Assembly: GCA_022703355.1 (NCBI GenBank)
Contig: JAKLDU010000001.1
Coordinates: forward strand, 4,173-68,172
Direction of reading: 5' to 3'
Origin: Deltaproteobacteria bacterium
GTDB lineage: Bacteria; Desulfobacterota; Desulfomonilia; UBA1062
Length of the DNA stretch: 64,000 nt
Below are positions 7,132-48,959 of this stretch, piece by piece. Below the pieces are notes generated by a model. It saw only the letters and a program-made list of their open reading frames with translations, searched no databases and was not told the origin of the DNA. The position numbers and the translations under genes are program-made. Within the stretch, counting starts at the first letter, position 1; each line of letters opens with the position of its first letter.

Positions 7132-7161
7132 CGGGTCCCGGCATCGCCCTTCTCCCCTTCC

Positions 7162-7383
7162 TCACCCGCCAGGCCTCCCCCGGCCCGGTTTTTTCCGGCA
7201 GCGGCCGCCCGTTGCCGAACTTCCGGCGGGGGGGCGGGCGGTACCCTCGAGGCACAGCCCGCAGCGGTTGTCGCTGCACCACTGGCAGAAATGGCAGTCC
7301 GGGCAGGGGTGCTTCTTGGGCCCGTCACCCCCGTCCTGGACGAAGACGAGCCCTGCGACACCCTTCATGCGTATGAATCCCAT
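7162..7383 (-). CDS. Small cysteine-rich hypothetical protein (~73 aa); start uncertain (M19, M24 or M29 of ORF 7162..7452)
   Basis: Strong GC3 codon bias. Motif CPDCHFCQWCSDNRCGLC (CxxCxxCxxC...CxxxC) suggests a Zn-ribbon/Fe-S type small protein. No SD found. Divergent from the OMP gene. Confidence 0.35.
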   Translation of the reverse strand: MGFIRMKGVAGLVFVQDGGDGPKKHPCPDCHFCQWCSDNRCGLCLEGTARPPAGSSATGGRCRKKPGRGRPGG

Positions 7384-7502
7384 GCCCCCTTTTCTCATAT
7401 TCCCGGGGCCGGGACAAAGGGTAAATGCGGGGCCCCCCGTACGCTTGTCCATTGCGCCGAAAGCCTCCCCCGGTATATAAAAGCCGTACGGAGGAGGGCA
7501 CC

Positions 7503-8171
7503 ATGAAACTGGCGCTTTCGATTGCGTGCGTATTGGCGGCGGTCCTTGCCCTGGCCCCGGACTGCAGCGCCCGGAAATGGGAGGTTTCGCTCATGGCCGG
7601 CTATACCATGGGCGGCGGCTTCGACCAGGAAGGGGATGCCGAGGGGGATGACGTCTCCCTGGGCATCAGGGAAAGCCCCAGCTTCGCCGTCGCGGTGGAC
7701 ACCGTCTACGAGAAGGGCACGGAGTTCGAGATCTACTACTCCCGCCAGTCGACCGAGCTGGAGATCGAGGAGGGGGCCTTTTCCGGACAGAACCTGTTCG
7801 ACCTGGACATCCATACCCTCCAGATCGGCGGCACGGTCATCCTCACCCAGGCGACGGACGTCTTTGGCGAGACCCTCTTCAAACCGAACGCTTTCTGCGA
7901 GCCGTATTTCGTGGGCACCGTGGGTGTGGCCCATTTCAGGCCCGGGGATTCCGGGTACGATCCCGAGACGCGCTTCTGCGCGAGCCTGGGGTTCGGCACC
8001 AGGCTCCATGTCACGGAGCGTTTCGGGTTCCGCCTGGAGGCCCGGGGCATCGCGGCCTTCTTCAACGGCGGCGGCGCCGTGTTCAGCGGCCCCGAGGGCT
8101 TGAAGATCGCCGTCGATTCCGAGGCCGTCGGCCAGGGCGTGGTCAATGCGGGCCTGTATTACGGCTTCTGA
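7503..8171 (+). CDS. Outer-membrane beta-barrel protein (OmpA-like/porin-family barrel, OmpW-like size)
   Basis: Internal ATG (M27 of ORF 7425..8171) preceded by GGAGGG. Signal peptide MKLALSIACVLAAVLALAPDCSA. Alternating amphipathic beta-strands. C-terminal aromatic residue (..GLYYGF), typical of OMPs. Confidence 0.7.
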   Translation: MKLALSIACVLAAVLALAPDCSARKWEVSLMAGYTMGGGFDQEGDAEGDDVSLGIRESPSFAVAVDTVYEKGTEFEIYYSRQSTELEIEEGAFSGQNLFDLDIHTLQIGGTVILTQATDVFGETLFKPNAFCEPYFVGTVGVAHFRPGDSGYDPETRFCASLGFGTRLHVTERFGFRLEARGIAAFFNGGGAVFSGPEGLKIAVDSEAVGQGVVNAGLYYGF

Positions 8172-8287
8172 GCGGCCCGGGGCGCCGCGAACCCTCCGGA
8201 GGGCGGGGGCCCGGCGCATCCTGCCGGGAAGGGGTCCGGCCCAGGGAAAATCATGATCAGGGAGACCGAAAAAGGGGGGGGCGTAAA

Positions 8288-9769
8288 ATGAGAAGATCTT
8301 TTCTGGCGGTCCTGCTGGTGCTGGTCCTTTCGAGCGCGGCGCAGGCCGAGGCCTTCAAGCGCGTGGTGCTCTACCAGGACCGGGCGTTCCTCACGGTGGA
8401 GCGCCTGGCCGCCAACCGGAAGCTCGTCGTGGACGCCCCGCCGGAGATGGTGAGGGAATCCCTGACCGTCGTGCCCCTGCAGGGCGGCTCCATCAGGTCC
8501 ATCGGCGTCGAGCCCAAGCGGATCATGTCCGGTCGCGCCGCGGGGATAAAGGCCGACCTCGACCGGAACAGGACGGCCCTCGAGGGAAAGAAACGCCTGA
8601 AAGCCACCGCGGAGCGGGAGATCGAGCTCATCTTCGACGTTGCCGGGGGCAGGGAGAAGGAACCCCCCTTCTCGAAGACGAGGCTCACCGAAGCCCTCTC
8701 CTTCATCGACGCGAAGGTGGGGGGGCTCAATGAAAAGGTCGTCTCCCTGGACCGGGAGATCGAGGTGCTCTCCCTCAGGGTGAAGGACCTGGAGGCCGAG
8801 CTGGCCGAGGTGTCCGGCAGGCGCGGCTTCGAGATCACCATCGAGACCGATTCCGAGCGCCCGGTCGAGGTTTCCTACGCCGTCATGAACGCCTCGTGGA
8901 GCCCGGAGTACACCGTGCGCGCGGACCCGGCGGCGGGGGGGCTGGCCATCGAGACGAAAGCGCTCATGCGCCAGGCGACGGGCACCGACTGGGAGATCGG
9001 CCAGCTGGCCGTGGCCACGGGCAGGCCCGGGTTCGGCATCGGGGCCCCCGAGCTTTCCCCGTGGGAGATCGGCCTTTCGAGGGCCTACCGGGGCGAAGGA
9101 GCTCTGCAGAAGGCCGCCCTGGCCGCCGCGCCCATGGCGCAGGCGGAGGACAGCAGCGAAGGGCCCGAGGTCAGGGCCACCGCGGTGTCCTACATCGTGG
9201 GGGCGGCCAGGTCCGTGACCCTGCCGGGCGACGGCAAGCCCCGGACGGCGGTGCTCCAGAACAGGCAGGTCAGGGCCGTTTTGGAGCGGGTTTCGGCCCC
9301 GAAGATCGACAGCGCCGTCTTCCTGCGGGCATCGGCCCCCTGGGATTCGGATCTGCCGCTCATGCCCGGGTCGTACACGGCTTTCGTGGAGGGCGAGTTC
9401 ACGGGCAGGGGCTTCCTCAAGGGCGCCCAGCCCGGGGAAAAGATCTCCGTGGACCTCGGCAGGGACGAGGGGGTCACGGTGGAGCGCAGGGAAAAGGCCT
9501 TCCACGAGCGCACGCTCACGGGCAAGGACCGGACCACCTACACCGGTACGATGACCGTGAAGAACACCCGGAAGACCCCGGCCCGGCTCACCCTCAAGGA
9601 CCAGATCCCGCTCTCCCGCGACGAGGCCGTCAGGGTCGACCTCGTCGAGACGAGCCCGAAGGCCGTGCCGGACAAAGACGGCATCCTTTCCTGGGACCTC
9701 GATCTCAAGCCCGGCGCCGAGGCGAAGGTCGTGCTGTCCTTCTCCGTCACGGGCATGCCCCCTTTGTAG
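8288..9769 (+). CDS. DUF4139/DUF4140 domain protein (mucoidy inhibitor MuiA-like), secreted
   Basis: 493 aa. Signal peptide (LLVLVLSSAAQAEA). Coiled-coil segment, then the conserved DUF4139-like C-terminal half (SYAVMNASWSPEYTVRADP...TGTDWEIGQLAVATG...YTGTMTVKNTRKTPARLTLKDQIPLSRDEAVRVDLVETSP). Confidence 0.7.
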   Translation: MRRSFLAVLLVLVLSSAAQAEAFKRVVLYQDRAFLTVERLAANRKLVVDAPPEMVRESLTVVPLQGGSIRSIGVEPKRIMSGRAAGIKADLDRNRTALEGKKRLKATAEREIELIFDVAGGREKEPPFSKTRLTEALSFIDAKVGGLNEKVVSLDREIEVLSLRVKDLEAELAEVSGRRGFEITIETDSERPVEVSYAVMNASWSPEYTVRADPAAGGLAIETKALMRQATGTDWEIGQLAVATGRPGFGIGAPELSPWEIGLSRAYRGEGALQKAALAAAPMAQAEDSSEGPEVRATAVSYIVGAARSVTLPGDGKPRTAVLQNRQVRAVLERVSAPKIDSAVFLRASAPWDSDLPLMPGSYTAFVEGEFTGRGFLKGAQPGEKISVDLGRDEGVTVERREKAFHERTLTGKDRTTYTGTMTVKNTRKTPARLTLKDQIPLSRDEAVRVDLVETSPKAVPDKDGILSWDLDLKPGAEAKVVLSFSVTGMPPL

Positions 9770-36496: not shown

Positions 36497-37519
36497 TCAG
36501 CCGATCGTGTGGGCGTAGGGGTCAGGGCGGTCCATGGCCTGGCGGATCTCATCGGGCGTGAGCCACTGGTCGTACTTCCGGTAGTCCGCAAAGACCTCGC
36601 AGGAGGTGCAGGGGATGTCCTCCCGCCCGGGGACGGTGCCCAGGTGCATCATCCGTGCGTACCGCATGCGCTCGTTGTTCACCTCCTGCGCAAACCTGCC
36701 GCCCAGGGCATCCTGCGCGAACACACCGTGCACGTTGTGGCTGCACCCGAGCAGCCTCCCGTCCCAGCTCACCTGCGGCGACCGCCAGAGCTGCAGGCAG
36801 ACGTGCCGCATGTAGATCATGCCGGTCTTGCGGAAAAAGGAGCTCGTGTCGGAGTAGCCGATGAGCTTCGTGAGCAGGGTGTGGTCCCGCAGGGGGAGGT
36901 GCTCGTCGAACACGTTGATCTTGAAATAGATCTCCATGCCCAGGGCCTTGGACATCACGATGATCCGGCCGATCTCGTGCTCGTTGTGCCCGAAGGGGAT
37001 GAACTGGAGGATCAGGCGGGGCAGGACGCTTCCATGGCGCTTCTTGTGCCCGTTGATCGCGCGCACGTTCCCGAGCACCTTCCGCAGGTCGCCGCCCACG
37101 CGGTACTTTTCGTAGGTTTCCTGGGTGGCCCCGTCGATGGAGACCTTCAGGATGGAGACGCCGTACTTCACGAGGGCCTCCAGGGCTTCGGGGGAGGCGT
37201 CGTTCAAGTTCGAGCCCTGGTCGATCTGTATCTTCACCCCCTTGTCGTGGGCGTACCGGAGCATGGCGGGCAGGTCGCGGTTCAAAAAGATTTCGCCCGA
37301 GCTCCCGATCTCGAGGGTCCGCACCCCGGGGTTGGCGTCGATGAACTCCCTGAAGGAGCTCAGCGGCAGGACGCCCCTGCCGATGAAGGCCTGCCCGTCC
37401 CGGTGCGCGACGGGGCAGAGCACGCACCTGAGCTGGCAGAGGCTGGAGATGTCGAGCCGCACCTCCGAGGGCTTGACCTCGAGGCAGTCGTCGCTCAGCC
37501 TTTCGCCGGTCCTCATCAT
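36497..37519 (-). CDS. Radical SAM enzyme (CxxxCxxC) with Cys-containing C-terminal auxiliary region; putative lasso-peptide tailoring enzyme
   Basis: 340 aa from ATGATG (revcomp 37514-37519), the C-terminal part of ORF 36497..37978. Motif CQLRCVLCP. Additional Cys at 241, 259, 304 and 307 (CTSCEVF) is compatible with a SPASM/twitch-like site. Start overlaps the stop of the upstream glycosyltransferase (translational coupling). Confidence 0.75.
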   Translation of the reverse strand: MMRTGERLSDDCLEVKPSEVRLDISSLCQLRCVLCPVAHRDGQAFIGRGVLPLSSFREFIDANPGVRTLEIGSSGEIFLNRDLPAMLRYAHDKGVKIQIDQGSNLNDASPEALEALVKYGVSILKVSIDGATQETYEKYRVGGDLRKVLGNVRAINGHKKRHGSVLPRLILQFIPFGHNEHEIGRIIVMSKALGMEIYFKINVFDEHLPLRDHTLLTKLIGYSDTSSFFRKTGMIYMRHVCLQLWRSPQVSWDGRLLGCSHNVHGVFAQDALGGRFAQEVNNERMRYARMMHLGTVPGREDIPCTSCEVFADYRKYDQWLTPDEIRQAMDRPDPYAHTIG

Positions 37520-38688
37520 GCCGCAGCCTCCAGGCATTCCCGCACGATCCCGCTCACCGTGCGGGACGAGTCGTAGCCTGCGTACCGCGCGGCAAACGCC
37601 GCGGCGTTTCTCCCGAGCTCGGCGGAGCCGGCCGCGAGGTCGAACTTCTCCCGCACTCCACCCGGTTTGCCCAAAAAGCTCGCGAACTGGCACAGCCCCT
37701 GCGCGTTGAGCCGGTGCGCCTGGATGGTCTGCTCGAGCTGCTCCGGGCACACGAGCATGCGCACGCCCATGAGGAGTACCTGCGCCGTGGTGCTGTAGCC
37801 CCCGTGCGTGACCGCCACGCCGCACTGGGCCGTCGCCCGGAAGATGTCCACGGGCTTCGGGCTGATGCGGAGGGTTGCGGACTGAGCCTTCTGCCGGTCG
37901 GACTCGGGCAGGTCGCGCACATACCCCACGGCCGGCAGCCCGCGGGTGCGGAGATGGTCGAGGAGGTCCGGAAGGCACCTGTTGGCGCTGCTCAGGTAAA
38001 AGAACACCCGGGGCCCGTCACCCTCGGGCCAGTCGCACCCGGCATCGGACCCGCTCTCGAAGATCGGCCCCCGGAAGGTCTCGCCTTCCCGGTTCCCGTA
38101 GTGGTCGGTTTCGGGGAAGATCGTGAGAAAGCGCCGTGCCCCGCAGAAGATGCGGGCCACGGAATCGACCGACGGCACGGCGCCCCGCACCCTCTCCACG
38201 AGCATGTCCTCCGTGCGGGCGAGCTCCTTTTCCGGCAGGGACAGCCAGGGGTGCAGGCCCGGCATGGGCGAGAGGTCCGGGGGCAGGGTGAACCCCGTGC
38301 CGAGGGCGCCCCGGGGCAGGTCCAGGGACAGGGCCGCAAGCAGGGCGGTGGGGGAGTAGTCCGTCAGGACGAAGTGGGGCTTGTGCTCGCGGAGGCGTCC
38401 GGTCCACCAGGCGAACTGCTCCCGGAACCGCTCCCCGTCCCAATAGCCGTTGCCCCAGATGCACTGGGCATAGTTCAGCGAAAAGCCGGTCTTGAGGATC
38501 TTCCACGCGGGGGATTGCTCGATGGCGACGTCGAGCCCCGTAAAAGCCTGATGGGCTCTCCGGGCGTCGCAGCACAGCACGGAGACGCTGCTGCCGCGCC
38601 TCAGGAACTCCCGTGCGATCGCCCTGAATGGCAGGACATGCCCCCAACCCCCGCCCATCTCGCAGGCGATGACGATGCGGCATGCCAC
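37516..38688 (-). CDS. GT1-family (GT-B, MGT/UDP-glycosyltransferase-like) glycosyltransferase; putative lasso-peptide tailoring enzyme
   Basis: 390 aa with GTG start (VACRIVIACEMGGGWGHVLPF...). C-terminal sugar-donor motif ...AVTHGGYSTTAQVLLMGVRMLVCPEQLEQ, typical of GT1 enzymes. Sits 33 nt downstream of the precursor gene. Confidence 0.75.
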   Translation of the reverse strand: MACRIVIACEMGGGWGHVLPFRAIAREFLRRGSSVSVLCCDARRAHQAFTGLDVAIEQSPAWKILKTGFSLNYAQCIWGNGYWDGERFREQFAWWTGRLREHKPHFVLTDYSPTALLAALSLDLPRGALGTGFTLPPDLSPMPGLHPWLSLPEKELARTEDMLVERVRGAVPSVDSVARIFCGARRFLTIFPETDHYGNREGETFRGPIFESGSDAGCDWPEGDGPRVFFYLSSANRCLPDLLDHLRTRGLPAVGYVRDLPESDRQKAQSATLRISPKPVDIFRATAQCGVAVTHGGYSTTAQVLLMGVRMLVCPEQLEQTIQAHRLNAQGLCQFASFLGKPGGVREKFDLAAGSAELGRNAAAFAARYAGYDSSRTVSGIVRECLEAAA

Positions 38689-38720
38689 GATTTACGAACT
38701 GATGAGAAAGCTTGTGCTGC

Positions 38721-38858
38721 TCAGCTGTATACGCTGTTGTCCGAGCCGGTTCCCGTGTACCCGCTCAAGGTCGTCGCATTGATGTCGAGCTCCCTGATGC
38801 TGGGCTTCTCCCACTCGGGTAGATCTGTGCGCACGGTGGTGTCTTTTCTGTCTTCCAT
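38721..38858 (-). CDS. Lasso peptide precursor (A); MEDRKDTTVRTDLPEWEKPSIRELDINATTL / SGYTGTGSDNSVYS
   Basis: 45 aa ORF at the C-terminus of ORF-track frame 38721..40118. Strong RBS GGAGGAGG, then 5 nt, then ATG. Leader has an aromatic-xxP-x-hydrophobic motif (WEKPSI) and Thr at -2 if the core starts at Ser. Core Ser1...Asp9 (or Gly1...Asp8) allows the macrolactam. C-terminal Ser matches HPr-kinase-type phosphorylation targets. Confidence 0.75.
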   Translation of the reverse strand: MEDRKDTTVRTDLPEWEKPSIRELDINATTLSGYTGTGSDNSVYS

Positions 38859-38959
38859 GGTCGCCTCCTCCTGCATGTGCATGGGATGCTTATAGATACG
38901 GGAAGTCGCATCCGTTTGTCCAGAAAAAAACGAGCCTTTTCGTGATGCAGCCTGCCCCG

Positions 38960-39241
38960 TCACCCTGCGGAGACGAGGTCGAATCCCGCCATCTCCCGGA
39001 TAAAGTCCGTCACGTCCCTGAGGCACTGGCCGCCCTCGACCGAGAAGGAGCCTTCGAGCTCCCTGCAGATCTCCGCTATGGAGCGGGGCTCCTCCAGCAG
39101 GGCGAAGATCCGCGCCCCGGTCTCGTTCAGATGATAGTACTTGCCGTTCTGGATGTTCATTGCCACCAGCTCGTTGTCGATCATTCCGGTGAAGATGTCC
39201 TCGTTCTTCCTGACGATGCTGTCGGGACTCAGTGATGCCAT
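38960..39241 (-). CDS. Lasso peptide biosynthesis B1 protein (PqqD-like RiPP recognition element)
   Basis: 93 aa. ...NELVAMNIQNGKYYHLNETGARIFALLEEPRSIAEICRELEGSFSVEGGQCLRDVTDFIREMAGFDLV, classic PqqD/RRE. Confidence 0.88.
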   Translation of the reverse strand: MASLSPDSIVRKNEDIFTGMIDNELVAMNIQNGKYYHLNETGARIFALLEEPRSIAEICRELEGSFSVEGGQCLRDVTDFIREMAGFDLVSAG

Positions 39242-39280
39242 CGGGTCTTCCTCCTTTGTGGGCGCCTCTGTGGGCCCCGG

Positions 39281-40261
39281 TTATCCCCGCTCTTTTTCCC
39301 GGATGGTGCGGCAGAGGTCCTCCGGCCGCGGGAGGCTGGCCGGAAGCCTGATCTCCTGCACCATGACCTGTGCCGAGAGCTCCTGCAGGTTTTGAAACAG
39401 GCTGAGCCTGCTGATGGTGTCTCCCATGAAGCGGATGCAGAAGACGTGCTCCAGGAGGGCGTGGAACTTTGCCGCCCCCGCAAGCGGCACGAACGAGAGC
39501 TCCGGGTCGTTTGTGCGGCGCAGGATGAAGATCTTCCTCAGCGGGGCCGGCTCGCTCCTGAAGGTGGAACGGGCGAGCACGGCGAGCTTGTTCACGTCGG
39601 GCTTCAAGCGGCCTGCCACGGTGTGCTCGAAGGCCACTTCCCCGAGCGCGTCCTCCCAGAGCCTGATCTCGGGGATGCCCGGCGCCACCGACGGCTGGCC
39701 GCCTTCGAAGCGTATGAGCGCGATGTTGTCGTCGAGATAGGCGCATCCGGCATTGAGGAAGGCCGCGGCCAGGGTGGACTTGCCCGTGCCGGAGGCGGCG
39801 CAGAAGACGAAGCACGCGTCCCCGTCGCACAGGGCGCTGCCGTGCAGGGGCAGCATGCCCCGCTGGTGGAAGATGCCCGCCAGGGACCAGCCGAGCAGGA
39901 TCTGCCTGATGATGCCGGGGTTGCCCCCCGGCAGCTGCTGGACGGTGATGGCATTGCCCCCGGAGACGCGGATCGTGGCGCTCTGGGAGCCCCGGAGCAG
40001 GAGCTCGCCCGGCGAGGACTCGATCTGCACCGAGCTCGGCGGCACGTAGTCCCGGCCGAAGATCACCCCCTGGCCGATGCGGACGTCCGGCTCCCCCGCG
40101 AAGGTGGACTCGGGCCACTGGGGGAAGGAGATCTCCGAGGCAAACGAGAGGCCGTAGGCCCGGTAGGCGTACGGGCCGCCGGAGAAGAGCCCGCCCTCTT
40201 CGGGAGGCGCCTTCACCGCCCCTTCAAGGGCGTTCTCAGGAGTGGTGCAGCTCGATGCCAT
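39281..40261 (-). CDS. HPr kinase/phosphorylase C-terminal-domain-like protein (lasso-peptide Ser kinase homolog, PadeK/PsmK-type)
   Basis: 326 aa. P-loop GSALCDGDACFVFCAASGTGKSTLAAAF. Family N-terminal pattern (PYAYRAYGLSFASEISFP). The annotated ATG overlaps the cupin gene by 26 nt, so the true start may be a downstream non-ATG codon. Confidence 0.8.
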   Translation of the reverse strand: MASSCTTPENALEGAVKAPPEEGGLFSGGPYAYRAYGLSFASEISFPQWPESTFAGEPDVRIGQGVIFGRDYVPPSSVQIESSPGELLLRGSQSATIRVSGGNAITVQQLPGGNPGIIRQILLGWSLAGIFHQRGMLPLHGSALCDGDACFVFCAASGTGKSTLAAAFLNAGCAYLDDNIALIRFEGGQPSVAPGIPEIRLWEDALGEVAFEHTVAGRLKPDVNKLAVLARSTFRSEPAPLRKIFILRRTNDPELSFVPLAGAAKFHALLEHVFCIRFMGDTISRLSLFQNLQELSAQVMVQEIRLPASLPRPEDLCRTIREKERG

Positions 40262-40949
40262 AGAACCTCGCCGGGAAAGCGTCGCGGTTGATCATGCCGT
40301 GGGGCACGCGGGAGCCCATGAACGCGAAGGCCGGCGCGTTCACCGTCTTGCCGAGGATCTCCAGGGAGCCTTCCACCAGGGCGAGAAGAAGCTCGTGGTC
40401 GTGGCGGTGGAGCGGGATCACCCCCCCGGTCGAAAGCACGTGGTAGCGCACGTGCAGGCGGGAGAGGTAGCGCGAGGGCCCGGCGTAGACCTCGACGGCG
40501 CCGGGGTGCTCGCCGCCTTCCGCGCCGCGGAGGTGGTTGAACCGCAGGCCTTGCTTTCCGCCGGGGGGCTCGGCGTCCTTGCGCCACCTGGCGTGCAGGT
40601 AGTGCACCGGTGTGTCGCCGGTGTTCCGGAAGGTGTGCGGCACCCGGGAGTCGGTGAAGGACAGGGAGCCCGCCGTCAGGTCGAACGGCAGTTCGCCTGC
40701 GGACGAATCGCCGCTCGTGACGTACTGGAGGTTGTCCGACAGGGCGAGGTGAACCTCCTCGTGATCGTGGCGGTGAACCTCGTGGGGGGTCACCCGAGCG
40801 CTGAGCACCCCGTCGTGGATGCAGAGCTCGTCCAGGCACCTGGTCGAGCCGAGATACCACACCCGCCTGAACCACCCGGTGGCCGGGTCCTCCTCGAGCT
40901 GCCGGGGCAGCTCCTGAATCAGGAAATCCAATCCTTCCGTTTTTTTCAT
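40236..40949 (-). CDS. Bicupin-fold protein with two HxHDHE metal-binding-like motifs; putative tailoring enzyme
   Basis: 237 aa from ATG at 40949 (MKKTEGLDFLIQELP...), the C-terminal part of ORF 40236..42692. Motifs HRHDHEEVHLAL and PLHRHDHELLLALVEG. ATGA overlap with the cyclase stop. Confidence 0.6.
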   Translation of the reverse strand: MKKTEGLDFLIQELPRQLEEDPATGWFRRVWYLGSTRCLDELCIHDGVLSARVTPHEVHRHDHEEVHLALSDNLQYVTSGDSSAGELPFDLTAGSLSFTDSRVPHTFRNTGDTPVHYLHARWRKDAEPPGGKQGLRFNHLRGAEGGEHPGAVEVYAGPSRYLSRLHVRYHVLSTGGVIPLHRHDHELLLALVEGSLEILGKTVNAPAFAFMGSRVPHGMINRDAFPARFYGIELHHS

Positions 40950-42886
40950 CCCGTCCTCCCGGCCTGCTCGATGAAGCAGCCGCACATGATCCCGCGCAGC
41001 AGGAGCGTCGAGGCCTGCCACGCGGTGTAGGGGGTGATTCGGTCCTGCAGGGCGCGCCAGGCGCCTCGCATGCGGGGCAGGTCCAGGTACGCCGCTGTCT
41101 GCCCGTTCCGTTCGAGGCGCGCCAGGACATTCTCCATCTCCCCCGGGAAGCACAGGAGCCGCAGGGCGACGTCCACCCCCTGCCTGCCGCGGACCGTGTT
41201 CCACTGCACCTCCGGGGGGACGAGCCCCTCCACGGCCCGCCGGATCACCATGCGCTCGCCGCCGCCGAAGGTGTCCTGGCAGCCGGGCAGGCCCAGGCAG
41301 TAGCGCAGCAGGCGGGCGTCCGCGGTGGGGTCCCGCACGTCCATGCCGAAGGCCGCCCCGGTGACGTGCCAGATGGGCCCGGCCATAACGCCGTTGCGCA
41401 TGAGGGTGAGCCGGCGCTGTTCGCGGGGGTGGGGCAGGGCGCTGAAGGTCGGGTCGTGGCGCGCCTCCTCCATGGCCTGCTCCAGGCCCATGCGAGAAGC
41501 GAAGTCGGGGCGGATGGGGGCGTATTCGCTCCAGGGCCGGGGGGCCCCCCTCAGCCTCGACTGGAGGCGCTTGAAGGAGGGGCGCAGCCAGGGCCTGATC
41601 AGCTGGCCCGCCAGCGCTCCCACCCAGGAGGAGCCGGTGCGCTCCTTCCACCGGGCGAGGGCGTCGAGGCCCTCGCCCCACCTGCCCTCGGCGAAGAGCC
41701 AGAAGATGCGGCCCTGCCCGCCGCTCCACGAGACGCCCCCGTTGCCCAGCTGGCCGGTGAGCATGACGCCGAGGCCCTGCTCCCGGGCGGCGTCGTGGAG
41801 CGCCATGATCCAGTATTCGTTGGCGGCCGCGTGCTGGGGGGCGCGGTTGAGAGCCACGGCCCGTTCGATCCCCTGCAGGGGAGACACCCCGGAGGCGTCG
41901 ACGGCGGTGTGGTCGATGTTGCCGTACCTGCGGGCGACGGCGCTCGCCAGGGGCCACTCGTTTGCCAGGGTGCCCGGCGCCAGGCGGCTTGCCTCGTGCA
42001 GGGGCACGGAGGTGAAGGCCTTCAGGGTGCGCCCTTCGCCCTCCAGCGCCTGCGCCGCCAGGGCGGTCACCGAGGAGGAGTCCAGCCCGGCGCTCAGGCT
42101 CGCCCCGACGGGCCTGCGCGACCTCAGGCGCACGGTGACCGCCTCGCGGTAGCGCTCGAGGAAGCCGGCCACGCAGTCGTCGTCCCGCCGGCCTTCTTCG
42201 GTGGGTATGTCCCCCATGTCCCAGTACCGCCTCGCCTCCAGCCCCCGGGGCCCCGCTTTCAGGCAGGAAGCGGGCAGCAGCCGGAAGACGCCCTCCCAGC
42301 AGGTGTCCTCCGGCTTCCCCAGGGGAAAGATGGCCAGGTAGGAAGCGAGGTGGCGCTCGCTCACCCTGCACTCGACCCCATCCAGGGAAAACAGGGCTTC
42401 CGGGTCGGAGGAAAAGGCGAAAAGCGGCGGGCGGAGGCAGTAAAAGAGCCCCGTGTTCCCCAGGTGGTCCCTGGCCAGGAAGAGCGTGCGCGTCAGGGGG
42501 TCCCAGGCGGCGTACGACCAGTCGCCGAAGAGGCGGCCCGGGGCGTCCTCCCCCCAGGCGAGCCAGGCGCGCTTCGCCAGCTCGCCGTCGGGCACGGTCC
42601 CGCGCTCGCCCCCGGTGATATCGAAGGCGTCGCACAGCTCGTCGCGGTTGTCGAGGCGGGCGGCCGCGGTGAAAAGCGCGCCTGTGCCGCATGGCCGCGA
42701 CGGCATGGATTCATGGACCGATTCGGGGGTGATGGCGAGGCGGGCAAAGCCCACGACCCCGGCTTGACCGCTCGCCGTAAAGACGCCGTCGGGCCCCCAG
42801 CGCTCCATGGCCCGGCTCATGAGCTCTCCCGCCCCGGGGTGCAGGGGTTGCCCATCAAGATGCACACAACCGAAGATGGCGCTCAT
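40946..42886 (-). CDS. Lasso peptide cyclase (C), asparagine-synthetase-like (macrolactam synthetase)
   Basis: Start at M38 of ORF 40946..42997 (MSAIFGCVHLDG...). Residue 2 is Ser, not the Cys nucleophile of class-II amidotransferases, as in McjC-type cyclases. AsnB-type PP-loop SAGLDSSSV and C-terminal synthetase domain. Confidence 0.88.
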   Translation of the reverse strand: MSAIFGCVHLDGQPLHPGAGELMSRAMERWGPDGVFTASGQAGVVGFARLAITPESVHESMPSRPCGTGALFTAAARLDNRDELCDAFDITGGERGTVPDGELAKRAWLAWGEDAPGRLFGDWSYAAWDPLTRTLFLARDHLGNTGLFYCLRPPLFAFSSDPEALFSLDGVECRVSERHLASYLAIFPLGKPEDTCWEGVFRLLPASCLKAGPRGLEARRYWDMGDIPTEEGRRDDDCVAGFLERYREAVTVRLRSRRPVGASLSAGLDSSSVTALAAQALEGEGRTLKAFTSVPLHEASRLAPGTLANEWPLASAVARRYGNIDHTAVDASGVSPLQGIERAVALNRAPQHAAANEYWIMALHDAAREQGLGVMLTGQLGNGGVSWSGGQGRIFWLFAEGRWGEGLDALARWKERTGSSWVGALAGQLIRPWLRPSFKRLQSRLRGAPRPWSEYAPIRPDFASRMGLEQAMEEARHDPTFSALPHPREQRRLTLMRNGVMAGPIWHVTGAAFGMDVRDPTADARLLRYCLGLPGCQDTFGGGERMVIRRAVEGLVPPEVQWNTVRGRQGVDVALRLLCFPGEMENVLARLERNGQTAAYLDLPRMRGAWRALQDRITPYTAWQASTLLLRGIMCGCFIEQAGRTG

Positions 42887-43025
42887 GGACCGGCTTGTCT
42901 CCTTGGGCATGGGGCTTGACGACCGCAGATCAAGGTAACTGTAAGGAAAAGTCCTGGAGGTGTCAACACGGAAAGGCCGGCACTTTCCCGTTGACAAAGG
43001 CCGGGGGGGCCATTAGCTTCGGGGC
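42887..43025. promoter_or_regulatory. Divergent intergenic region between lasso cyclase (C) and B2 genes (putative bidirectional promoter)
   Basis: 139 bp between the divergent C and B2 start codons. Contains CTTGACGACC / TTGACA-like hexamers (gttgacaaagg) and GGCCGGGGGGGCC. Confidence 0.3.
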
Positions 43026-43463
43026 ATGCGGCGCCTGGGAAAGTTTTTCAAACTGAGCGGCGGCGAGAAGCGGCGCTTCGTGGAGGCGGCCGTCTGGCTC
43101 ACGGTGTTCAGGGTCGCCGTGTCCTGCGTGCCCTTCCGGGTTATCGCCGGTCTCCTGGGCAGGGAGAGGGGGGAGACGGCCGTTGCTTTCCCGGACCCCG
43201 CGGGCAGGGGGGAAGTCCTGGCCGTGGCCCGGGCGCTTAAGGTCATGGGCCGCTCTCTCCCCTGGGAAAGCACCTGCCTGGTCAAGGCCGCGGCAGGCAA
43301 GCGCATGCTGTCGTGCCGCTCCATCCCCGCCACCCTCTACCTCGGGGTCGCCCGGGACGACGTGAACGCGGTCGCCGCCCACGCCTGGCTCCGCTCCGGG
43401 GACGTCATCCTCACCGGGGCCGAGGAGCGCGATCGCTACACCGTGATCTGCACCTTCGCCTGA
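43026..43463 (+). CDS. Lasso peptide biosynthesis B2 protein (transglutaminase-like Cys protease, leader peptidase)
   Basis: 145 aa. Catalytic-triad context ...WESTCLVKAAAGKRML...LYLGV...AHAWL...D. Same size and shape as split-B B2 proteins. Encoded on the strand opposite to the rest of the cluster. Confidence 0.85.
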   Translation: MRRLGKFFKLSGGEKRRFVEAAVWLTVFRVAVSCVPFRVIAGLLGRERGETAVAFPDPAGRGEVLAVARALKVMGRSLPWESTCLVKAAAGKRMLSCRSIPATLYLGVARDDVNAVAAHAWLRSGDVILTGAEERDRYTVICTFA

Positions 43464-43639: not shown

Positions 43640-45448
43640 TCACCCCCCTGTCTGGCGTTTCCAGGATTGGGAGTAGCGGCCCTGCGATGCCACCAGCTCC
43701 TCGTGGGACCCGGACTCCACGATGCGCCCCGCGTCCATCACGTGGATGACGTCCGCCTGGAGGGCCGTGGTGAAGCGGTGGGTGATGACGAGGGCCGTTC
43801 TCCCGGCCGCGAGGGAGCGGAAGCGGGCCATCCAGTCCCCCTCGGCCCAGGAGTCCATGGCGCTGGTGGGCTCGTCCATGATGATGAGCGGGGCCTGCCT
43901 GAGAAAGGCCCGGGCCAGGGCCAGGCGCTGCCATTCGCCCACGCTCAGCTCCGCGCCGCCGAACCACTTGCCCAGGAGGGTTTCGTAGCCCTTGTCGAGG
44001 CGCCCGATGAGGGCGTCCGCCCCGGCCGACCGGGCGGCCTCGCGGACGTCTTCGGCATCGGGGGCGTCCGCCGGGGAGCTGAAGGCGATGTTGTCGAAGA
44101 CCGTCTCGTGGTAGCGCACCGGCTCCTGGAAGAGGATGGTGATGGAGGAGCGCACCCCGGCCAGCGCTGCGTCCCGCAGGTCCACGCCGTCCAGGAGGAT
44201 GGAGCCGGCGTCGGGGTCGTAGCAGCGGCACAGGAGCTTGATGAGGGTGCTCTTGCCCGCCCCGTTCTCCCCCACGATGGCCGTGATCCGCCCCGGCGGG
44301 ATGGTCAGGCTGAAATCCTCGAGCGCCGGGCGGGGGCTGCCGGCATAGGAGAACGTGACGCCGCGGATCTCCACCGCACCGGCCGGGGCGTGCGGGGAAA
44401 GCGGCTCCGGCGGGTCGGCGATGAGCGGCCTGACGTCCAGGTACTCGAAGAGGTTCTCCAGGAACATCATGTTGCGGTAGATCTCCCCCGCCTGGGCCAG
44501 GAGGTCCCGCAGCATCCTCTGCCCCTGGGTGAAGGCCAGGTAGAAGAGGGTGAGGTCGCCCAGCGTCATGAGCCCCTGCGAGGCCCTGCCCGCCATCCAG
44601 GCGAGCACCCCGGCCAGCGCGGCGAGGCCAAAGGCACCGGCGGCGAGCTGCCCCCCCGCCTCCGCCTTGAGCAGGGAGAACCGCTCGGTGCGCAGGCGCT
44701 CCCGGATCCCCTGGAAGGCGGAGCGGAACCTGTCGCCCAGGGCGAAGATGCGCAGCTCGGCCGCGGCGTTGCGGTCCGTGATCAGCCAGTCGTAGTAGCG
44801 GCTTCTCCGCTCGGCCGCCGTGTTGTTGAGGCGCCAGGCGTGGAAGCGCAGGGTGTTGCGCAGGATCACCCACAGGGCGGGCAGGGTGCTCCCCACGAGC
44901 ACCAGGGGCACCCAGAGCCCGAACCGCAGGAGCACGACGCCCATGGCGGCCAGGGTGATCCCGTTCTGGAGAAAGGCGCCGAAGTTCTCCAGCAGGGCCG
45001 CGGGCCTGCTCAGGGCATCGACCCGGGCCCGGTGGAGGCGGTCGTAGTAGTCCGGGGAATCGTAGAAGGCCAGATCCAGGGCGAGCGCCTGCCGGTGGAT
45101 GAGATTGTGGATGTGGTCCTGCACCCGCTCGCTCTGGAGGGCCCGCACGAGGCCGGCGGAGATGCGCAGGACCTCGCCCAAGAGCATGACCAGGGCGAGG
45201 GCGCCGATGAGCAGCAGGAGGGGGCGCAGGCCTTCCCAGGACCGGCCGCCGCTTGCCGCCGCCGCCAGGCCGTCCACCACGGCCTTCGAGAGGTAGACCA
45301 CCGCCGCGGGGAGGAGCCCCTGGGCCAGGAGCAGCACGAGCCAGAGCGCCACCAGGCCCTTTGCCGCGGAGGAGATGAGGGCGAAGGCCCGGGGCAGGTA
45401 GGGGATCTGGTGCAGGCCGGACTTCAGCTTGTCTTCGAGCGCGCTCAT
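43640..45448 (-). CDS. ABC transporter, fused permease/ATPase (lasso peptide exporter, McjD-like)
   Basis: Start at M50 of ORF 43640..45595. 6-TM exporter domain. Walker A GENGAGKST. ABC signature LSVGEWQRLALARAF. Walker B IIMDEPTSAMD. Confidence 0.9.
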   Translation of the reverse strand: MSALEDKLKSGLHQIPYLPRAFALISSAAKGLVALWLVLLLAQGLLPAAVVYLSKAVVDGLAAAASGGRSWEGLRPLLLLIGALALVMLLGEVLRISAGLVRALQSERVQDHIHNLIHRQALALDLAFYDSPDYYDRLHRARVDALSRPAALLENFGAFLQNGITLAAMGVVLLRFGLWVPLVLVGSTLPALWVILRNTLRFHAWRLNNTAAERRSRYYDWLITDRNAAAELRIFALGDRFRSAFQGIRERLRTERFSLLKAEAGGQLAAGAFGLAALAGVLAWMAGRASQGLMTLGDLTLFYLAFTQGQRMLRDLLAQAGEIYRNMMFLENLFEYLDVRPLIADPPEPLSPHAPAGAVEIRGVTFSYAGSPRPALEDFSLTIPPGRITAIVGENGAGKSTLIKLLCRCYDPDAGSILLDGVDLRDAALAGVRSSITILFQEPVRYHETVFDNIAFSSPADAPDAEDVREAARSAGADALIGRLDKGYETLLGKWFGGAELSVGEWQRLALARAFLRQAPLIIMDEPTSAMDSWAEGDWMARFRSLAAGRTALVITHRFTTALQADVIHVMDAGRIVESGSHEELVASQGRYSQSWKRQTGG

Positions 45449-46674
45449 CGGGCCGTCTTCAGGATGCGCCCGGCCTTTTTCCTGACGACCAGGAGGGGCC
45501 GGATGAGGTAGCGGAGGAAGGAGAGACCCTCCGGGAGGGGAAGATTCACCGTTTCCGCGTACTGGGGCCGGAAATGGAGTGCCAGGTAGCGCCATTTCTC
45601 GGGCGTCCCCCTGCAGGCCGCCCAGCCGATCCTCTTCGTGAGCCAGTACCTGCGGCCCCAGGCGTGATCCGTCCCCTCCCAGGGGAGGACGGCCATCCGC
45701 AGGGCCAGCTCGACGAACTTCGCTTCCCGGGGGTCCTTGAGGAGCTCCAGGGCCTCGGCGGGCACCGGAACGTCGAAGAGCAGGTGGGCCAGGAGCACGG
45801 AGCGGAGCAGGCGCGGTTTTTCGCCGTAGCGCTCGGCAACCGCGATCAGGCTTTCGAACCCGCCGGGCCCCGGGCCGCCCACCAGGGCCGCGATGTCGAA
45901 GAGGCGGATGAGCCGCTCCCAGGCGTGCCGCTCCCCGTGGATGGCCAGGTAGACGCCGTGGAGGGGCAGGGGCAGGGTGGGGACCTCCGTGCCGTGCAGC
46001 TTCACCGCGGCCCGCTGCTGCCAGAGGTCCTCGAAGGGGAACCGGGGGCCTTCCCCGTCGTGGCAGAGATGGAAATGGAGCTCCACGTGGGCGCGGTTCC
46101 GGGGGTTGACGAAGTGGGTGTGGATGGTGCCCCCGGGGTCGAGCGCCGCCTTGCCGGGGCCTTCCCCGGGCTGGTAGACGAACCCGTCCTTGAGGAGCAG
46201 GCTTTCCGCCCTTTCGTGGTCGTCCCGGGAAACGAGCAGGTCCAGGTCAGAGCAGTAGCGCATGCCCGGGTCGCCGTAGAGCTGCACCGAAAGGGCCGGC
46301 CCCTTGAACGCCATGACGCGGGTCCCGCTGTGCGCGAAGAGCCTGCTCAGGCGGGCGAGCTCCGCCGTCATCTTCAGGAGGTGCATGCCGCTCTCCGTGC
46401 CCCGCCCCCGGGCCGCTTCCGGGAGGCCCCCGGCGTTTCCCCGGCCCTCAAGGGCGCGCAGCGCAGGGATGAGCAGGCGGTTCTCGTGGAGGAGGTTTAC
46501 GAACCGGCCCCAGTCGGGGCCATGGAGGGCCGCAAGGCGGTCGAGGGCGCCCGGTGGCCCGGCCGGGCTGTTTTTCAGCAGGGCCGCGGCGCAGGAGAAC
46601 ATGAGCCTGAACTCGAGGGCGGCCTCGGGGTCCAACCCGGACCTGGCGAGCTGCCGGTCAACCAGGGGATGCAC
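45445..46674 (-). CDS. Nucleotidyltransferase-family protein (PF14907-like, lasso-cluster-associated NTase, PsmN-type)
   Basis: 409 aa. ...VMAFKGPALSVQLYGDPGMRYCSDLDLLVSRDD...HVELHFHL..., the NTP_transf_5 signature. ATGA overlap with the ABC exporter start. First gene of the minus-strand operon. Confidence 0.75.
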   Translation of the reverse strand: MHPLVDRQLARSGLDPEAALEFRLMFSCAAALLKNSPAGPPGALDRLAALHGPDWGRFVNLLHENRLLIPALRALEGRGNAGGLPEAARGRGTESGMHLLKMTAELARLSRLFAHSGTRVMAFKGPALSVQLYGDPGMRYCSDLDLLVSRDDHERAESLLLKDGFVYQPGEGPGKAALDPGGTIHTHFVNPRNRAHVELHFHLCHDGEGPRFPFEDLWQQRAAVKLHGTEVPTLPLPLHGVYLAIHGERHAWERLIRLFDIAALVGGPGPGGFESLIAVAERYGEKPRLLRSVLLAHLLFDVPVPAEALELLKDPREAKFVELALRMAVLPWEGTDHAWGRRYWLTKRIGWAACRGTPEKWRYLALHFRPQYAETVNLPLPEGLSFLRYLIRPLLVVRKKAGRILKTAR

Positions 46675-47015: not shown

Positions 47016-48959
47016 TCAGAGGACGTGGGCGATGGTCCCTGCGACGACGAGCGCCACCGCCGTGTTCAGGGCGACGGAGGCGGCGGCCACCTTCCACCCC
47101 CCTTCCTTCCACAGGGTGGAGATGGTGGCGATGCAGGGGATGTAGAGCACGGTGAAGACCACGAGCACCAGGAGCTGCACCGGGGAAAGGACGGAGGCGA
47201 CGTTCGCCGTGCCCAGCGCCGATTCGAGCATGATGAGCGTGAGCTCCTTCCTGAAGATGCCCAGGAACAGGGTGATCCCCAGGTTTTCCGGGAGGTCGAG
47301 GACGAAGGCGGTGACCGGGGAGAGCGCCGCGTTCACGTACGCGTCGACGCCCGCGTGCGCCATGACCGCCAGCACGATGCTCGAGATTGCGATCACCGGC
47401 CAGGCGAAGGCCAGGAACTCGTAGGTCATGGCCCAGACCTTCCTGAGCACGATGCCCGCGTAGGGTCTCCTTAAAGGCGGCACGTCCATGATGATCCCCG
47501 GCGACGTCTCGACGTTGAACCGCGACAGGAGGAACGACATCGCCAGGGCCACGGCGATGTTCCCCAGGTAGATGAGCGTGGCATACCCCGCCCCCAGGTA
47601 CTTGCCCGCCAGGGCCATGATGATCACGGTGCGCGCCGAGCACGAGATGAAGGGGACCACCAGGAGGGTGATGATCCGGTCGCGCTCGTACTCGAGGTTC
47701 CGGGCGGCCATGATGGCAGGCACGTTGCAGCCGTAGCCCAGGATGAGGGGCACCACGGACTTCCCGTGCAGCCCGAACCGGTGCAGCAGGCCGTCCATCA
47801 TGAAGGCGATGCGCGGCAGCAGCCCGGTGTCCTCCAAAAGCGACATGAGGGTGAGGAGCGGCACGAGAAAAGGCAGGACGATGCCCAGGCCCGCGGTGAC
47901 CCCGTCCCAGAGGCCCGCGGCGAGGATCAGCACGTTTCCGCTCAGCAATCCCGGAAGCTGCCGGCCGACGAGGTCGAGCGGCCCCTCGAGCAGGCCCGAG
48001 AGGAGGTCGCCCAGCCAGAACGAGGTGGAGAACATGAGGAAGATCAGGGCCGCAAACGCGATCAGCCCGCCTGCGGGGTTGATGATGAAGCTGTCGACGG
48101 CCTCCCCGAAGGAGAGCTTCGCCCTCGACTTCACCACGGCCACGTCCTCGAAGAGGTCCATGACCATGGCGTGGCGGTGCGACGCGAAGACCCCGGTCTC
48201 GGGCCAGGCGTGGACCTCCGCCAGGAAGCGCCGGTTTTCCCGGACGAACTGGAGGAACGCGGGGTCGGCCTCCTGGGCCAGGGCCTCGAACTCCGGGTCC
48301 ATCTCCAGGAGCCTGATGATGACGAAGCGCTCGTTCACCCGGGCGAGCTCCCCCAGGGATTGCGGGTAGCGGCTCGCGATGCGGGCGATGCACTCCTCCA
48401 CGTCCTTGTCGTACACGGGCTTCCGGTAGCGGTACGCCTCCCGGGAGACCTTGAACGCGGCCCTGAAGAGCTCGTGCACGCCGCTGCCCTGCGCCGCCAC
48501 GAGGGGGCAGGCCTCCACGCCGGTGAGGGAAGCGAGCTTCGCCGCGTCGATGGCGATCCCCTTTTTCTGGGCCTCGTCGAACATGTTCAGGGCGATGACC
48601 ATGGGGACGTCCATCTCCATGAGCTGGATGGTGAGCTCCAGCGAGCGGGCCAGCGTGGAGGAGTCGAGCACGTTGATGATGACGTCCACGCTCCCGGAGA
48701 GGAGGTAGTCCCGGGCCACCTTCTCGGCGATGTCGTGGGCCGAGATGGAGTAGGTCCCGGGCAGGTCGATGAGCTTCACGGTGCGGCCCTCGAAAAAGAC
48801 CCTCGTCTCGGTGTAGGCCACGGTGGTGCCGGAGAAGTTGCCGGTGTTCACCTTGAACCCGGCCACGGCGTTGAACAGGGTGGATTTCCCGCAGTTGGGC
48901 TGCCCGGCCAGGGCTATGACCAGCTCGTCACCGGGGCTCTTCGTTGCGGATCTCGACAT
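47016..48959 (-). CDS. feoB: Ferrous iron transport protein B (FeoB)
   Basis: 647 aa. G-domain (IALAGQPNCGKSTLFN, DLPGTYS). GDI-like region. Polytopic permease domain. Canonical FeoB. Annotated start overlaps the feoA 3' end by 32 nt. Confidence 0.95.
   Translation of the reverse strand: MSRSATKSPGDELVIALAGQPNCGKSTLFNAVAGFKVNTGNFSGTTVAYTETRVFFEGRTVKLIDLPGTYSISAHDIAEKVARDYLLSGSVDVIINVLDSSTLARSLELTIQLMEMDVPMVIALNMFDEAQKKGIAIDAAKLASLTGVEACPLVAAQGSGVHELFRAAFKVSREAYRYRKPVYDKDVEECIARIASRYPQSLGELARVNERFVIIRLLEMDPEFEALAQEADPAFLQFVRENRRFLAEVHAWPETGVFASHRHAMVMDLFEDVAVVKSRAKLSFGEAVDSFIINPAGGLIAFAALIFLMFSTSFWLGDLLSGLLEGPLDLVGRQLPGLLSGNVLILAAGLWDGVTAGLGIVLPFLVPLLTLMSLLEDTGLLPRIAFMMDGLLHRFGLHGKSVVPLILGYGCNVPAIMAARNLEYERDRIITLLVVPFISCSARTVIIMALAGKYLGAGYATLIYLGNIAVALAMSFLLSRFNVETSPGIIMDVPPLRRPYAGIVLRKVWAMTYEFLAFAWPVIAISSIVLAVMAHAGVDAYVNAALSPVTAFVLDLPENLGITLFLGIFRKELTLIMLESALGTANVASVLSPVQLLVLVVFTVLYIPCIATISTLWKEGGWKVAAASVALNTAVALVVAGTIAHVL

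Follow-up and report, generated by a model that had tools for sequence, protein, structure and literature searches.

A phospho-lasso peptide gene cluster carrying a candidate glycosyltransferase, radical SAM and bicupin tailoring module

The 64,000-nucleotide stretch of contig JAKLDU010000001.1 analyzed here (assembly GCA_022703355.1, from a Deltaproteobacteria bacterium; hereafter the window) carries on its minus strand an operon in which genes for a GT1-type glycosyltransferase (GT), a radical S-adenosylmethionine (SAM) enzyme and a two-barrel cupin (bicupin) stand among genes for the biosynthesis of a lasso peptide (Table 1). This operon, delimited by frame analysis of the GC content at third codon positions (GC3) and by a listing of open reading frames (ORFs), spans from about 42.9 kb down to 36.5 kb in the order cyclase, bicupin, HprK-like kinase, B1, precursor, GT1 and radical SAM enzyme. 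To judge from the sequence, this is the distal half of a split-B lasso operon of the phosphorylated paeninodin/pseudomycoidin type: a cyclase and separate B1 and B2 proteins are encoded, and the precursor has Thr at position −2 and an Asp within core positions 7–9, the threaded fold itself being a prediction. The combination of an HprK-related kinase (scoring below its curated cutoff) with a precursor ending in Ser, as do those recovered from 20 relatives, places the cluster among the phospho-lasso systems with a predicted kinase activity, and the PsmN-type NTP_transf_5 protein places it in the pseudomycoidin subtype. A second copy of lasso genes elsewhere in the 64-kb window was considered and rejected, as no paralogues are present.

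Three of the gene junctions overlap exactly as the initial annotation had described them. The GT gene ends with GAG GCT GCG GCA TGA (stop codon at 37518–37516) and the radical SAM gene begins with ATG ATG AGG (37519–37514), the ATGA at 37519–37516 being common to both; a Shine-Dalgarno-like GGAGG (37531–37527) lies 7 nt upstream of the first radical SAM ATG. The cyclase stop codon (TGA, 40948–40946) and the bicupin start codon (ATG, 40949–40947) likewise share an ATGA (40949–40946), with a Shine-Dalgarno-like GGGAGG 5 nt upstream of the bicupin start. The bicupin gene (stop codon at 40238–40236) overlaps the kinase gene (ATG at 40261–40259) by 26 nt, and this overlapped ATG together with the kinase N-terminus M-A/E-S-N-x-T-x-P is also found in three related loci (L001, L005 and L009). 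On a near-identical metagenome contig from JGI (L089), genes called independently have all three of these junctions. Four-base ATGA overlaps are very common in operons. We read those of the window as ordinary operon organization, with co-transcription and possible translational coupling and nothing unusual about them; it is because of conserved synteny, and not because of the overlaps, that we regard the genes as belonging together.

The set of bicupin, kinase, PqqD-type, precursor, GT1 and radical SAM genes recurs as a cassette alongside lasso genes at about 20 loci, which represent several anaerobic lineages (L001–L012, L014–L021, L023, L024, L026, and L089); radical SAM identities to the window enzyme are 40–69% there. 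The initial annotation had taken the three enzymes for genuine members of the lasso cluster and had named synteny with non-lasso contexts only as the finding that would speak against this; the recurrence of the full cassette next to lasso genes bears its assignment out. The closest radical SAM relatives of the window enzyme (55–70% identity) sit in the same cassette, with genes for the cyclase, B2, the ABC exporter and the NTP_transf_5 protein nearby on long contigs, and this tier includes the cultured Desulfatiglans anilini DSM 4660 (L007; cluster on AULM01000005.1, about 6.8–27.9 kb) and metagenome-assembled genomes (MAGs) whose titles read Aminicenantes, Smithella and Desulfatiglandaceae. 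Chloroflexi, Desulfobacterales, Geobacter, Riflebacteria and Brocadiaceae make up a second tier, at 40–48% radical SAM identity. Gene order is altered in L009, L014, L015 and L026 with the gene set kept, and a GT always accompanies the radical SAM enzyme where the contig permits.

Several of these loci have features of their own. Two tandem radical SAM paralogues, 47–50% identical to each other's clade, follow the GT gene in L006/L007 (11028–12026), and such a pair is also present in L010, L011, L012, L014, L015, L018, L019, L021, L022, L023, and L024; the window cluster has a single radical SAM gene, followed by convergent unrelated genes. The cassette of L001 (JGI 3300010351; 4997–9595) lies on a 15.6-kb contig devoid of cyclase, B2 and exporter genes, with NusG/HU-like genes at one flank and an integrase gene plus a Prim-Pol/DnaB-like gene at the opposite one; it could be mobile, or could function in the absence of a lasso cyclase. 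Three tandem GT2 genes are found beside the radical SAM genes, in addition to the GT1 gene, in the Desulfobacterales/deltaproteobacterial loci L014 (6105–8942) and L015 (5466–8152), which suggests that their product carries an oligosaccharide. L008 (1–6691) has a second lasso-like set, consisting of PqqD, B2, a 55-amino-acid peptide ending in NSS and ABC genes, as well as a 993-amino-acid adenylation/peptidyl carrier protein of the nonribosomal peptide synthetase type, all upstream of a kinase-PqqD-precursor-GT-radical SAM/cupin cassette.

The precursor peptide of the window (MEDRKDTTVRTDLPEWEKPSIRELDINATTL/SGYTGTGSDNSVYS; leader/predicted core) is preceded by AGGAGGAGG 5 nt upstream of its ATG. 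Its leader/core boundary, NATT-L/SGYTGTGSD9, was read from the sequence and provides the Thr at −2 and Asp9 as the predicted ring acceptor. The statement of the initial annotation that the core contains no Cys is correct and extends to the whole precursor; the hydroxyl-bearing residues of the core are four Ser, two Thr and two Tyr. All 20 precursors recovered from related loci end in Tyr-Ser, with the remainder of the core variable (NVIYS, ASYS, NVMYS, GGSYS, NTMYS, NNNYS, GQGYS, TFGYS, GSVYS, GFGYS, IEGYS, LSNYS, AGGYS, GNAYS, GGIYS, and NQYS are among the ends observed). The C-terminal Ser is the target of homologous kinases; the invariant Tyr in front of it is a new feature. The second, kinase-free precursor of L008 has SS, not YS, at its end. 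No precursor was recovered for L020, where the contig ends, or for L012, where the expected region (8536–9078) is AT-rich and riddled with stop codons and where the GT is matched in part only (33%); in L012 the cluster may be in decay. The Aminicenantes precursor of L009 (11109–11255; ...EIDITVASGLTFTSVGTDNVMYS) has no obvious register of Thr(−2) and Asp(7–9) that would mark its cleavage site or ring size.

From its sequence features, the GT is a distant member of the GT1 family. Its N-terminal part has the GxxGH loop with the catalytic His, its C-terminal part a nucleotide-sugar motif that closes with E/D-Q, and E10, G12, G16, H17, P315, E319, and Q320 are invariant among its relatives. A profile of the family matches YjiC/UGT (E about 1e-14) and OleD (E 1.7e-10) in the PDB, and the nucleotide-sugar motif is matched by MGT TIGR01426 (E 7.6e-9) and MJ1255 (E 1.7e-8), both below their cutoffs; we speak of a distant member because the NCBIfam MGT model, whose cutoff is 260 bits, yields only 35. 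Enzymes of the YjiC/OleD type typically O-glycosylate hydroxyl groups, those of phenols included. Among NCBIfam models, the GT is best matched by those of the macrolide GT family, one of them the OleI model for self-immunity (E 0.003), and the radical SAM family is common in glycan-like loci; both observations would fit a GT that serves macrolide-GT-type self-protection or inactivation, or a GT-radical SAM pair that serves an unrelated cell-envelope glycan and happens to lie beside the lasso genes. We hold either to be highly improbable, given that the GT and radical SAM genes directly follow the precursor gene after a gap of only 32 nt with no terminator-like site between precursor and GT on their strand, that they have been kept together with the kinase, B1 and precursor genes across distant phyla and through changes in gene order, and that the precursors share the invariant Tyr-Ser end. 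Moreover, nearly all of the 48 GT matches obtained by a word-index search lie on contigs shared with the radical SAM gene.

The radical SAM enzyme (340 amino acids) contains Cys at positions 12, 28, 32, 35, 241, 259, 304, and 307. These include the CxxxCxxC motif (C28/C32/C35) and the four further C-terminal Cys to which the initial annotation had drawn attention; the former three are invariant, and C241, C259, C304, and C307 do not vary among 29 homologues, forming the pattern Cx12Gx4C...Cx2C, which we take to be that of the BtrN twitch domain. PF04055 is the sole Pfam match (41.4 bits; cutoff 29.5). Neither PF13186 nor TIGR04085 matched the window enzyme, which has the four C-terminal Cys only, and some of its relatives do match PF13186. 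The possible auxiliary cluster of the initial annotation thus survives as a plausible single Fe-S cluster bound by the four invariant Cys of a twitch-like motif; the SPASM profiles that it had suggested for a check give no match. An AlphaFold2 model (pLDDT 91.4) gave close fold matches to SuiB, SkfB, ChlB, CteB, and EpeE, with BtrN also among the matches; the modeled fold thus places the enzyme among the SPASM/twitch-like enzymes without specifying a substrate class. A weak match to GDGT-MAS (E 0.0017), at the N-terminus, was all that a profile search of the PDB sequences returned, and the curated radical SAM family models all stay below their cutoffs (for TIGR04466 BlsE, E 0.0014 and 18 bits, with 400 required).

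Homologues of this enzyme numbered 1275 in a word-index search. A pattern scan of one genome per species found 381 loci of the family, and the neighbors of the best 80 were examined. About 60 of these (38–46% identity) lack a cyclase, B2, PqqD, kinase or precursor gene, and no leader-like peptide ending in YS was found at these non-lasso loci. Of 63 non-lasso loci, 17 have GT2-, GT4- or GT28-type genes no more than 6 kb away (local jackhmmer/profile search), mostly adjacent and co-directional, as in the two-gene radical SAM-GT2 cassettes of L049 and L055, and further GT neighbors are of the Glyco_trans_1_2 (L034) and TOD1/MUCI70 (L061) types. Genes for NAD sugar epimerases/dehydratases occur in 8 of the 63, and a UDP-glucose dehydrogenase gene and an RmlA-like nucleotidyltransferase gene are also found among the neighbors. 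A Pfam census of the ±1 and ±2 neighbors counted 138 and 128 families, respectively, among which GTs and methyltransferases are the only recurrent themes. L038 encodes the radical SAM and a GT2 domain in a single ORF, and fusions of the radical SAM enzyme to the bicupin occur both in lasso loci (L008 and L017) and in non-lasso loci (L035, L045, L063, and L071). One family member, in L040 (9503–11353), is fused to C-terminal TPR repeats rather than to a cupin or GT.

These findings bear directly on the chemistry that the initial annotation had favored, in which the radical SAM enzyme would epimerize, C-methylate or crosslink (through C-C or C-O bonds) Tyr, Thr or Ser residues of the peptide, the bicupin would be a peptide hydroxylase or epimerase, and the GT would act independently. 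The invariant Tyr before the C-terminal Ser in all recovered precursors fits such a scheme, as do the PqqD-type recognition element for peptides made by ribosomes and modified after translation (RiPPs), which is always part of the cassette, and the peptide maturases among the close structural matches; most of the related clusters, with their two tandem radical SAM paralogues, also resemble some multi-step RiPP pathways. Nevertheless, we consider direct peptide chemistry unlikely, although action on the invariant Tyr is conceivable. Some three quarters of the best-matching loci have no precursor, RiPP recognition element (RRE), kinase or cyclase, and their radical SAM enzymes adjoin or are fused to GTs of unrelated folds, so that epimerization or a crosslink is not supported by the family as a whole. 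The Pfam scan of the 340-amino-acid enzyme revealed no cobalamin-binding domain, which renders C-methylation unlikely.

The bicupin adds to this argument. As initially annotated, it has two HRHDHE motifs (residues 59–64 and 181–186), and its invariant metal-ligand residues are H59, H61, E65, and H105 in the first barrel and H181, H185, E186, and H217 in the second; barrel 1 thus has a full 3His/1Glu site and barrel 2 a His/His/Glu/His arrangement. An AlphaFold2 model (pLDDT 91.2) is all-beta, and the protein has the features of a Cupin_2-type bicupin. Foldseek matched it to the compact bicupins BacB, AerE, and YlbA (TM 0.64–0.71), and a profile search of the PDB sequences gave nothing better than a monocupin at E 0.0013. 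No Pfam match to a 2-oxoglutarate (2OG)-oxygenase/JmjC domain (Cupin_8) was found at E ≤ 0.01. The proposed role as a hydroxylase is therefore not borne out for this Cupin_2-type protein, and an O2-dependent hydroxylase is improbable because the relatives of the producers come from anaerobic lineages.

A word-index search recovered 18 relatives of the bicupin, and an exhaustive HMMER search 377 representatives at E ≤ 1e-10. Among 101 of the best matches, of up to 1000 amino acids, that were scanned against Pfam, about half are fused to other domains: 42 to a PhyH-type Fe/2OG dioxygenase, seven to Radical_SAM (six of them with SPASM), about 12 to GT domains (GT2, TOD1/MUCI70, GT4, and GT92-like) and one to a sulfotransferase. 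No other enzyme domain type was found fused to the bicupin in this set. All three kinds of domain stand in a single chain in P0209 (bicupin-radical SAM/SPASM-three GT2 domains; 1511 amino acids), P0210 (PhyH-bicupin-GT4) and P0212 (GT2-PhyH-bicupin), and three of the bicupin-fused radical SAM domains are 39–44% identical to the enzyme of the window. The commonest fusion type, the PhyH-bicupin proteins of about 520–630 amino acids (P0193, P0194, P0198, P0201, and 38 other representatives), is apparently an uncharacterized architecture that mirrors the radical SAM-bicupin fusions. P0205 (1348 amino acids) is a giant cupin-radical SAM-cupin-sulfotransferase fusion.

Because of these fusions, we regard the GT, the oxidant and the bicupin as one functional unit, and it is very probable that GT1, radical SAM enzyme and bicupin of the window form a single module acting on this peptide. 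The interchangeable partnership of the bicupin with radical SAM or PhyH domains and with GTs argues for a shared logic that is not that of peptide modification. Because radical SAM and PhyH domains alternate, the oxidative step would be a hydrogen-atom abstraction that exists in an O2-independent and an O2-dependent version, and the domain architectures point to a radical SAM enzyme as the oxidant here and to a PhyH-type Fe/2OG dioxygenase in other lineages. The view of three enzymes that tailor the peptide independently of each other is thus disfavored by adjacency and fusion across the family, which rather suggest one glycosylation-linked module.

The same fusions could be read in another way: the oxidant, a radical SAM enzyme here and a PhyH enzyme in aerobes, might functionalize a C-H position of the acceptor, for instance the β-carbon of Tyr13 or another residue, the GT would then glycosylate the activated site, and the bicupin would assist the oxidation or bind the substrate. 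PhyH domains are typically hydroxylases, and their fusion to the bicupin in 42 of the 101 relatives, of which some also include a GT domain, fits such a scheme. It also has precedents, in the bifunctional collagen lysyl hydroxylase/GT enzymes and in mycofactocin, for which a radical SAM enzyme modifies a C-terminal Tyr before a GT2 enzyme glycosylates the Tyr-derived phenol. On the other hand, the core already offers many free hydroxyl groups, a radical SAM enzyme achieving net hydroxylation in the absence of O2 would be unusual, and the match of the window enzyme to the mycofactocin model TIGR03962 is weak (E 0.0046; 16 bits against a cutoff of 265). We therefore judge activation of the acceptor ahead of glycosylation to be quite improbable. 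That the window cluster is itself a mycofactocin system was considered and rejected, in view of this TIGR03962 score and of a precursor that has a lasso leader and ends in YS, not in the GVY of MftA-type peptides.

Our best explanation of the sequence data, to which we give about an even chance, is that a glycosylation-linked module for C-H functionalization has been recruited into a phospho-lasso cluster. Whether the radical step is directed at the sugar rather than at an amino acid is close to evenly balanced; the absence of an RRE domain from the radical SAM enzyme, the position of its CxxxCxxC motif from residue 28 onward, the C-terminal Cys pattern that we take to be BtrN-like and the GT2 genes of L014 and L015 all count in favor of the sugar. 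The reaction of the module is one that we infer, and it might proceed as follows. B1 would bind the leader, as is established for its class, and the kinase is expected, by analogy with PadeK/PsmK, to phosphorylate the C-terminal Ser14, as shown for homologous kinases with linear precursors. GT1 would then place a sugar on the Tyr13-Ser14(P) end, most likely on the Tyr phenol or on the phosphate, to which homologues of the PsmN-type protein can add a hexose. The radical SAM enzyme would abstract a hydrogen atom from this sugar, a dehydrogenation, deoxygenation or decarboxylation resembling those of BtrN, DesII or BlsE being the likeliest outcome, and the bicupin would convert the oxidized intermediate by isomerization, epimerization or a related step. 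Finally, B2 and C, whose homologues have been shown to make the lasso, would cut off the leader and form the Ser1-Asp9 ring, after which export would follow. More generally, and tentatively, a GT, a radical SAM or PhyH enzyme and a bicupin might constitute a widespread triad that couples glycosyl transfer to C-H functionalization in anaerobic and aerobic versions, and that produces here a new remodeled sugar or sugar-peptide linkage on the C-terminal Tyr-Ser(phosphate).

Several observations weigh against this interpretation. The window cluster contains no gene for nucleotide-sugar biosynthesis, and the bicupin was undetected in seven lasso-type loci (L016, L018, L019, L021, L023, L024, and L026). 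A GT or sugar gene is near only about one quarter to one third of the non-lasso loci, whose other neighbors are heterogeneous. Furthermore, a rough neighbor-joining tree with midpoint rooting resolves the lasso-linked and the non-lasso radical SAM enzymes as sister groups; the function could therefore have diverged after recruitment, and the direction of recruitment cannot be deduced from such a topology. The association with GTs is likewise compatible with hydroxylation or activation of an acceptor followed by glycosylation, as in the lysyl hydroxylase/GT enzymes, and with the mycofactocin logic of a radical SAM enzyme acting on a C-terminal Tyr and a GT decorating the product.

The scaffold on which the module would act is a known one. 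Clusters for paeninodin (pade) and pseudomycoidin (psm) share with that of the window the split B1/B2 proteins, the cyclase, the ABC exporter, the HprK-related kinase, in some cases the PsmN-type NTP_transf_5 protein, and a precursor ending in Ser; however, the known clusters, which come from Firmicutes and encode cores of more than 20 amino acids, have no GT1, radical SAM or bicupin gene, whereas the window cluster has a 14-amino-acid core, the invariant Tyr before Ser and a high-GC genome background, and its closest relatives are metagenome contigs and MAGs of anaerobic lineages. Phosphorylation at the C-terminal Ser, as well as attachment of a hexose to the phosphate, has been published for lasso peptides, and PsmN is needed for the addition of hexose to phospho-Ser in pseudomycoidin (PMC6993621). 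A GT encoded in a lasso cluster also decorates the peptide in the davasins of Streptomyces davaonensis, where IgtG iteratively glycosylates Ser residues of the mature lasso peptide (PMC11912497); IgtG is a membrane GT2/polysaccharide deacetylase with no radical or cupin partner, whereas the GT of the window is a soluble GT1 enzyme coupled to a radical SAM enzyme and a bicupin. Glycosylation of Tyr has been published for cacaoidin. The lasso tailoring reactions demonstrated so far, as reviewed, include phosphorylation, methylation, epimerization, hydroxylation, acylation, aspartimide formation, citrullination and two kinds of glycosylation, and none of them uses a radical SAM enzyme or a cupin. 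Full-text literature searches found no report of a GT1, radical SAM or cupin enzyme acting on a lasso peptide, although an earlier bioinformatic mention is possible. Hence, the expectation of new tailoring chemistry in this lasso operon holds insofar as the territory is unexplored and none is described in the literature searched; the reactions originally named, and the notion of three separate enzymes, are probably wrong.

The individual enzymes are remote from characterized ones. BlsE, DesII, BtrN, and AprD4, radical SAM enzymes acting on sugars or nucleotides, are only 15–18% identical to that of the window, whose substrate would be a glycopeptide. BacB, AerE, and YlbA (ureidoglycine aminohydrolase) share with the bicupin the two-barrel fold, a length of about 230 amino acids and His/Glu metal sites; their identity to it is 10–19%, however, and none is known to partner with a radical SAM, PhyH or GT enzyme. 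The mycofactocin system (MftA/B/C/F) resembles the window cluster in combining a PqqD-type chaperone, a radical SAM enzyme with auxiliary cluster(s) (plausibly one in the window enzyme), a peptide whose C-terminal motif has a conserved Tyr and a GT for decoration of the product. It differs in that MftC is a full SPASM enzyme, the GT is of the GT2 type, and neither lasso, kinase nor bicupin genes are present.

Some details of the genes listed in Table 1 deserve mention. The start of the NTP_transf_5 gene may lie about 13 codons further in (the JGI call is 396 amino acids long), and that of the cyclase gene may lie at 42910, which would lengthen the protein by 8 amino acids (JGI call, 646 amino acids). 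The cyclase matches the lasso model NF033535 with E 3.5e-89 and 300 bits, under the curated cutoff of 525, and the kinase gives a faint match to PF27840 (ScmC). The promoter-like sequence agrees with the consensus at 10 of 12 positions, two such sites being found against 0.3 expected in shuffled sequences, a measure of likeness to the consensus alone. The B2 gene is divergent from the rest of the operon also in L005, L006/L007 and L089, and because this arrangement recurs, the leader protease may be regulated apart from the tailoring genes. The ABC exporter and NTP_transf_5 genes are situated upstream of the operon, on its strand. Outside the cluster lie feoB (47016–48959) and convergent plus-strand genes below 36344.

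Table 1. Genes and other features of the lasso peptide cluster (positions counted from the first nucleotide of the window)
Feature	Coordinates	Strand	Evidence and remarks
NTP_transf_5 nucleotidyltransferase, PsmN-like	45445..46674	-	PF14907 E 3.2e-44; gene also called on L089
ABC exporter (lasso D protein)	43640..45448	-	ABC_membrane and ABC_tran; MsbA-like matches
Lasso B2 leader protease, transglutaminase-like	43026..43463	+	PF13471 E 1e-23; NF033537 lasso_biosyn_B2, 92.7 bits (cutoff 33)
Sigma-70-like promoter match, TTGACA-17-TACAGT	42938..42966	-	between the divergent B2 and cyclase genes, upstream of the latter
Lasso cyclase, Asn-synthetase-like C protein	40946..42886	-	Asn_synthase (PF00733 E 8e-28) and GATase_7
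Bicupin, 237 amino acids	40236..40949	-	two PF07883 Cupin_2 stretches
HprK-related peptide kinase	39281..40261	-	TIGR04352 HprK_rel_A E 5.7e-9, below cutoff
Lasso B1/PqqD-type RRE leader-binding protein	38960..39241	-	PF05402 E 1.6e-16; NF033536 lasso_PqqD_Bac E 1e-17
Precursor peptide, 45 amino acids	38721..38858	-	lasso leader and 14-amino-acid predicted core SGYTGTGSDNSVYS
GT1-type (GT-B, YjiC/OleD-like) glycosyltransferase	37516..38688	-	GTG start
Radical SAM enzyme, 340 amino acids, twitch-like motif for a plausible single auxiliary cluster, no RRE domain	36497..37519	-	

While the paeninodin/pseudomycoidin-type phospho-lasso scaffold is familiar, what appears to be new is the uncharacterized and widely distributed enzyme triad that the cluster carries. 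If our interpretation is true, this would be the first radical SAM-dependent tailoring of a lasso peptide. The cluster offers a compact test system, with a core of 14 amino acids, an invariant Tyr-Ser end and a cultured source in D. anilini DSM 4660, for a triad that is also present, often in fused form, in hundreds of other genomes. Solving the reaction here would assign a function to the radical SAM family (381 species-level loci) and to the bicupin family (377 representatives), and could reveal a matched pair of anaerobic and aerobic enzymes for the same sugar or glycopeptide chemistry.

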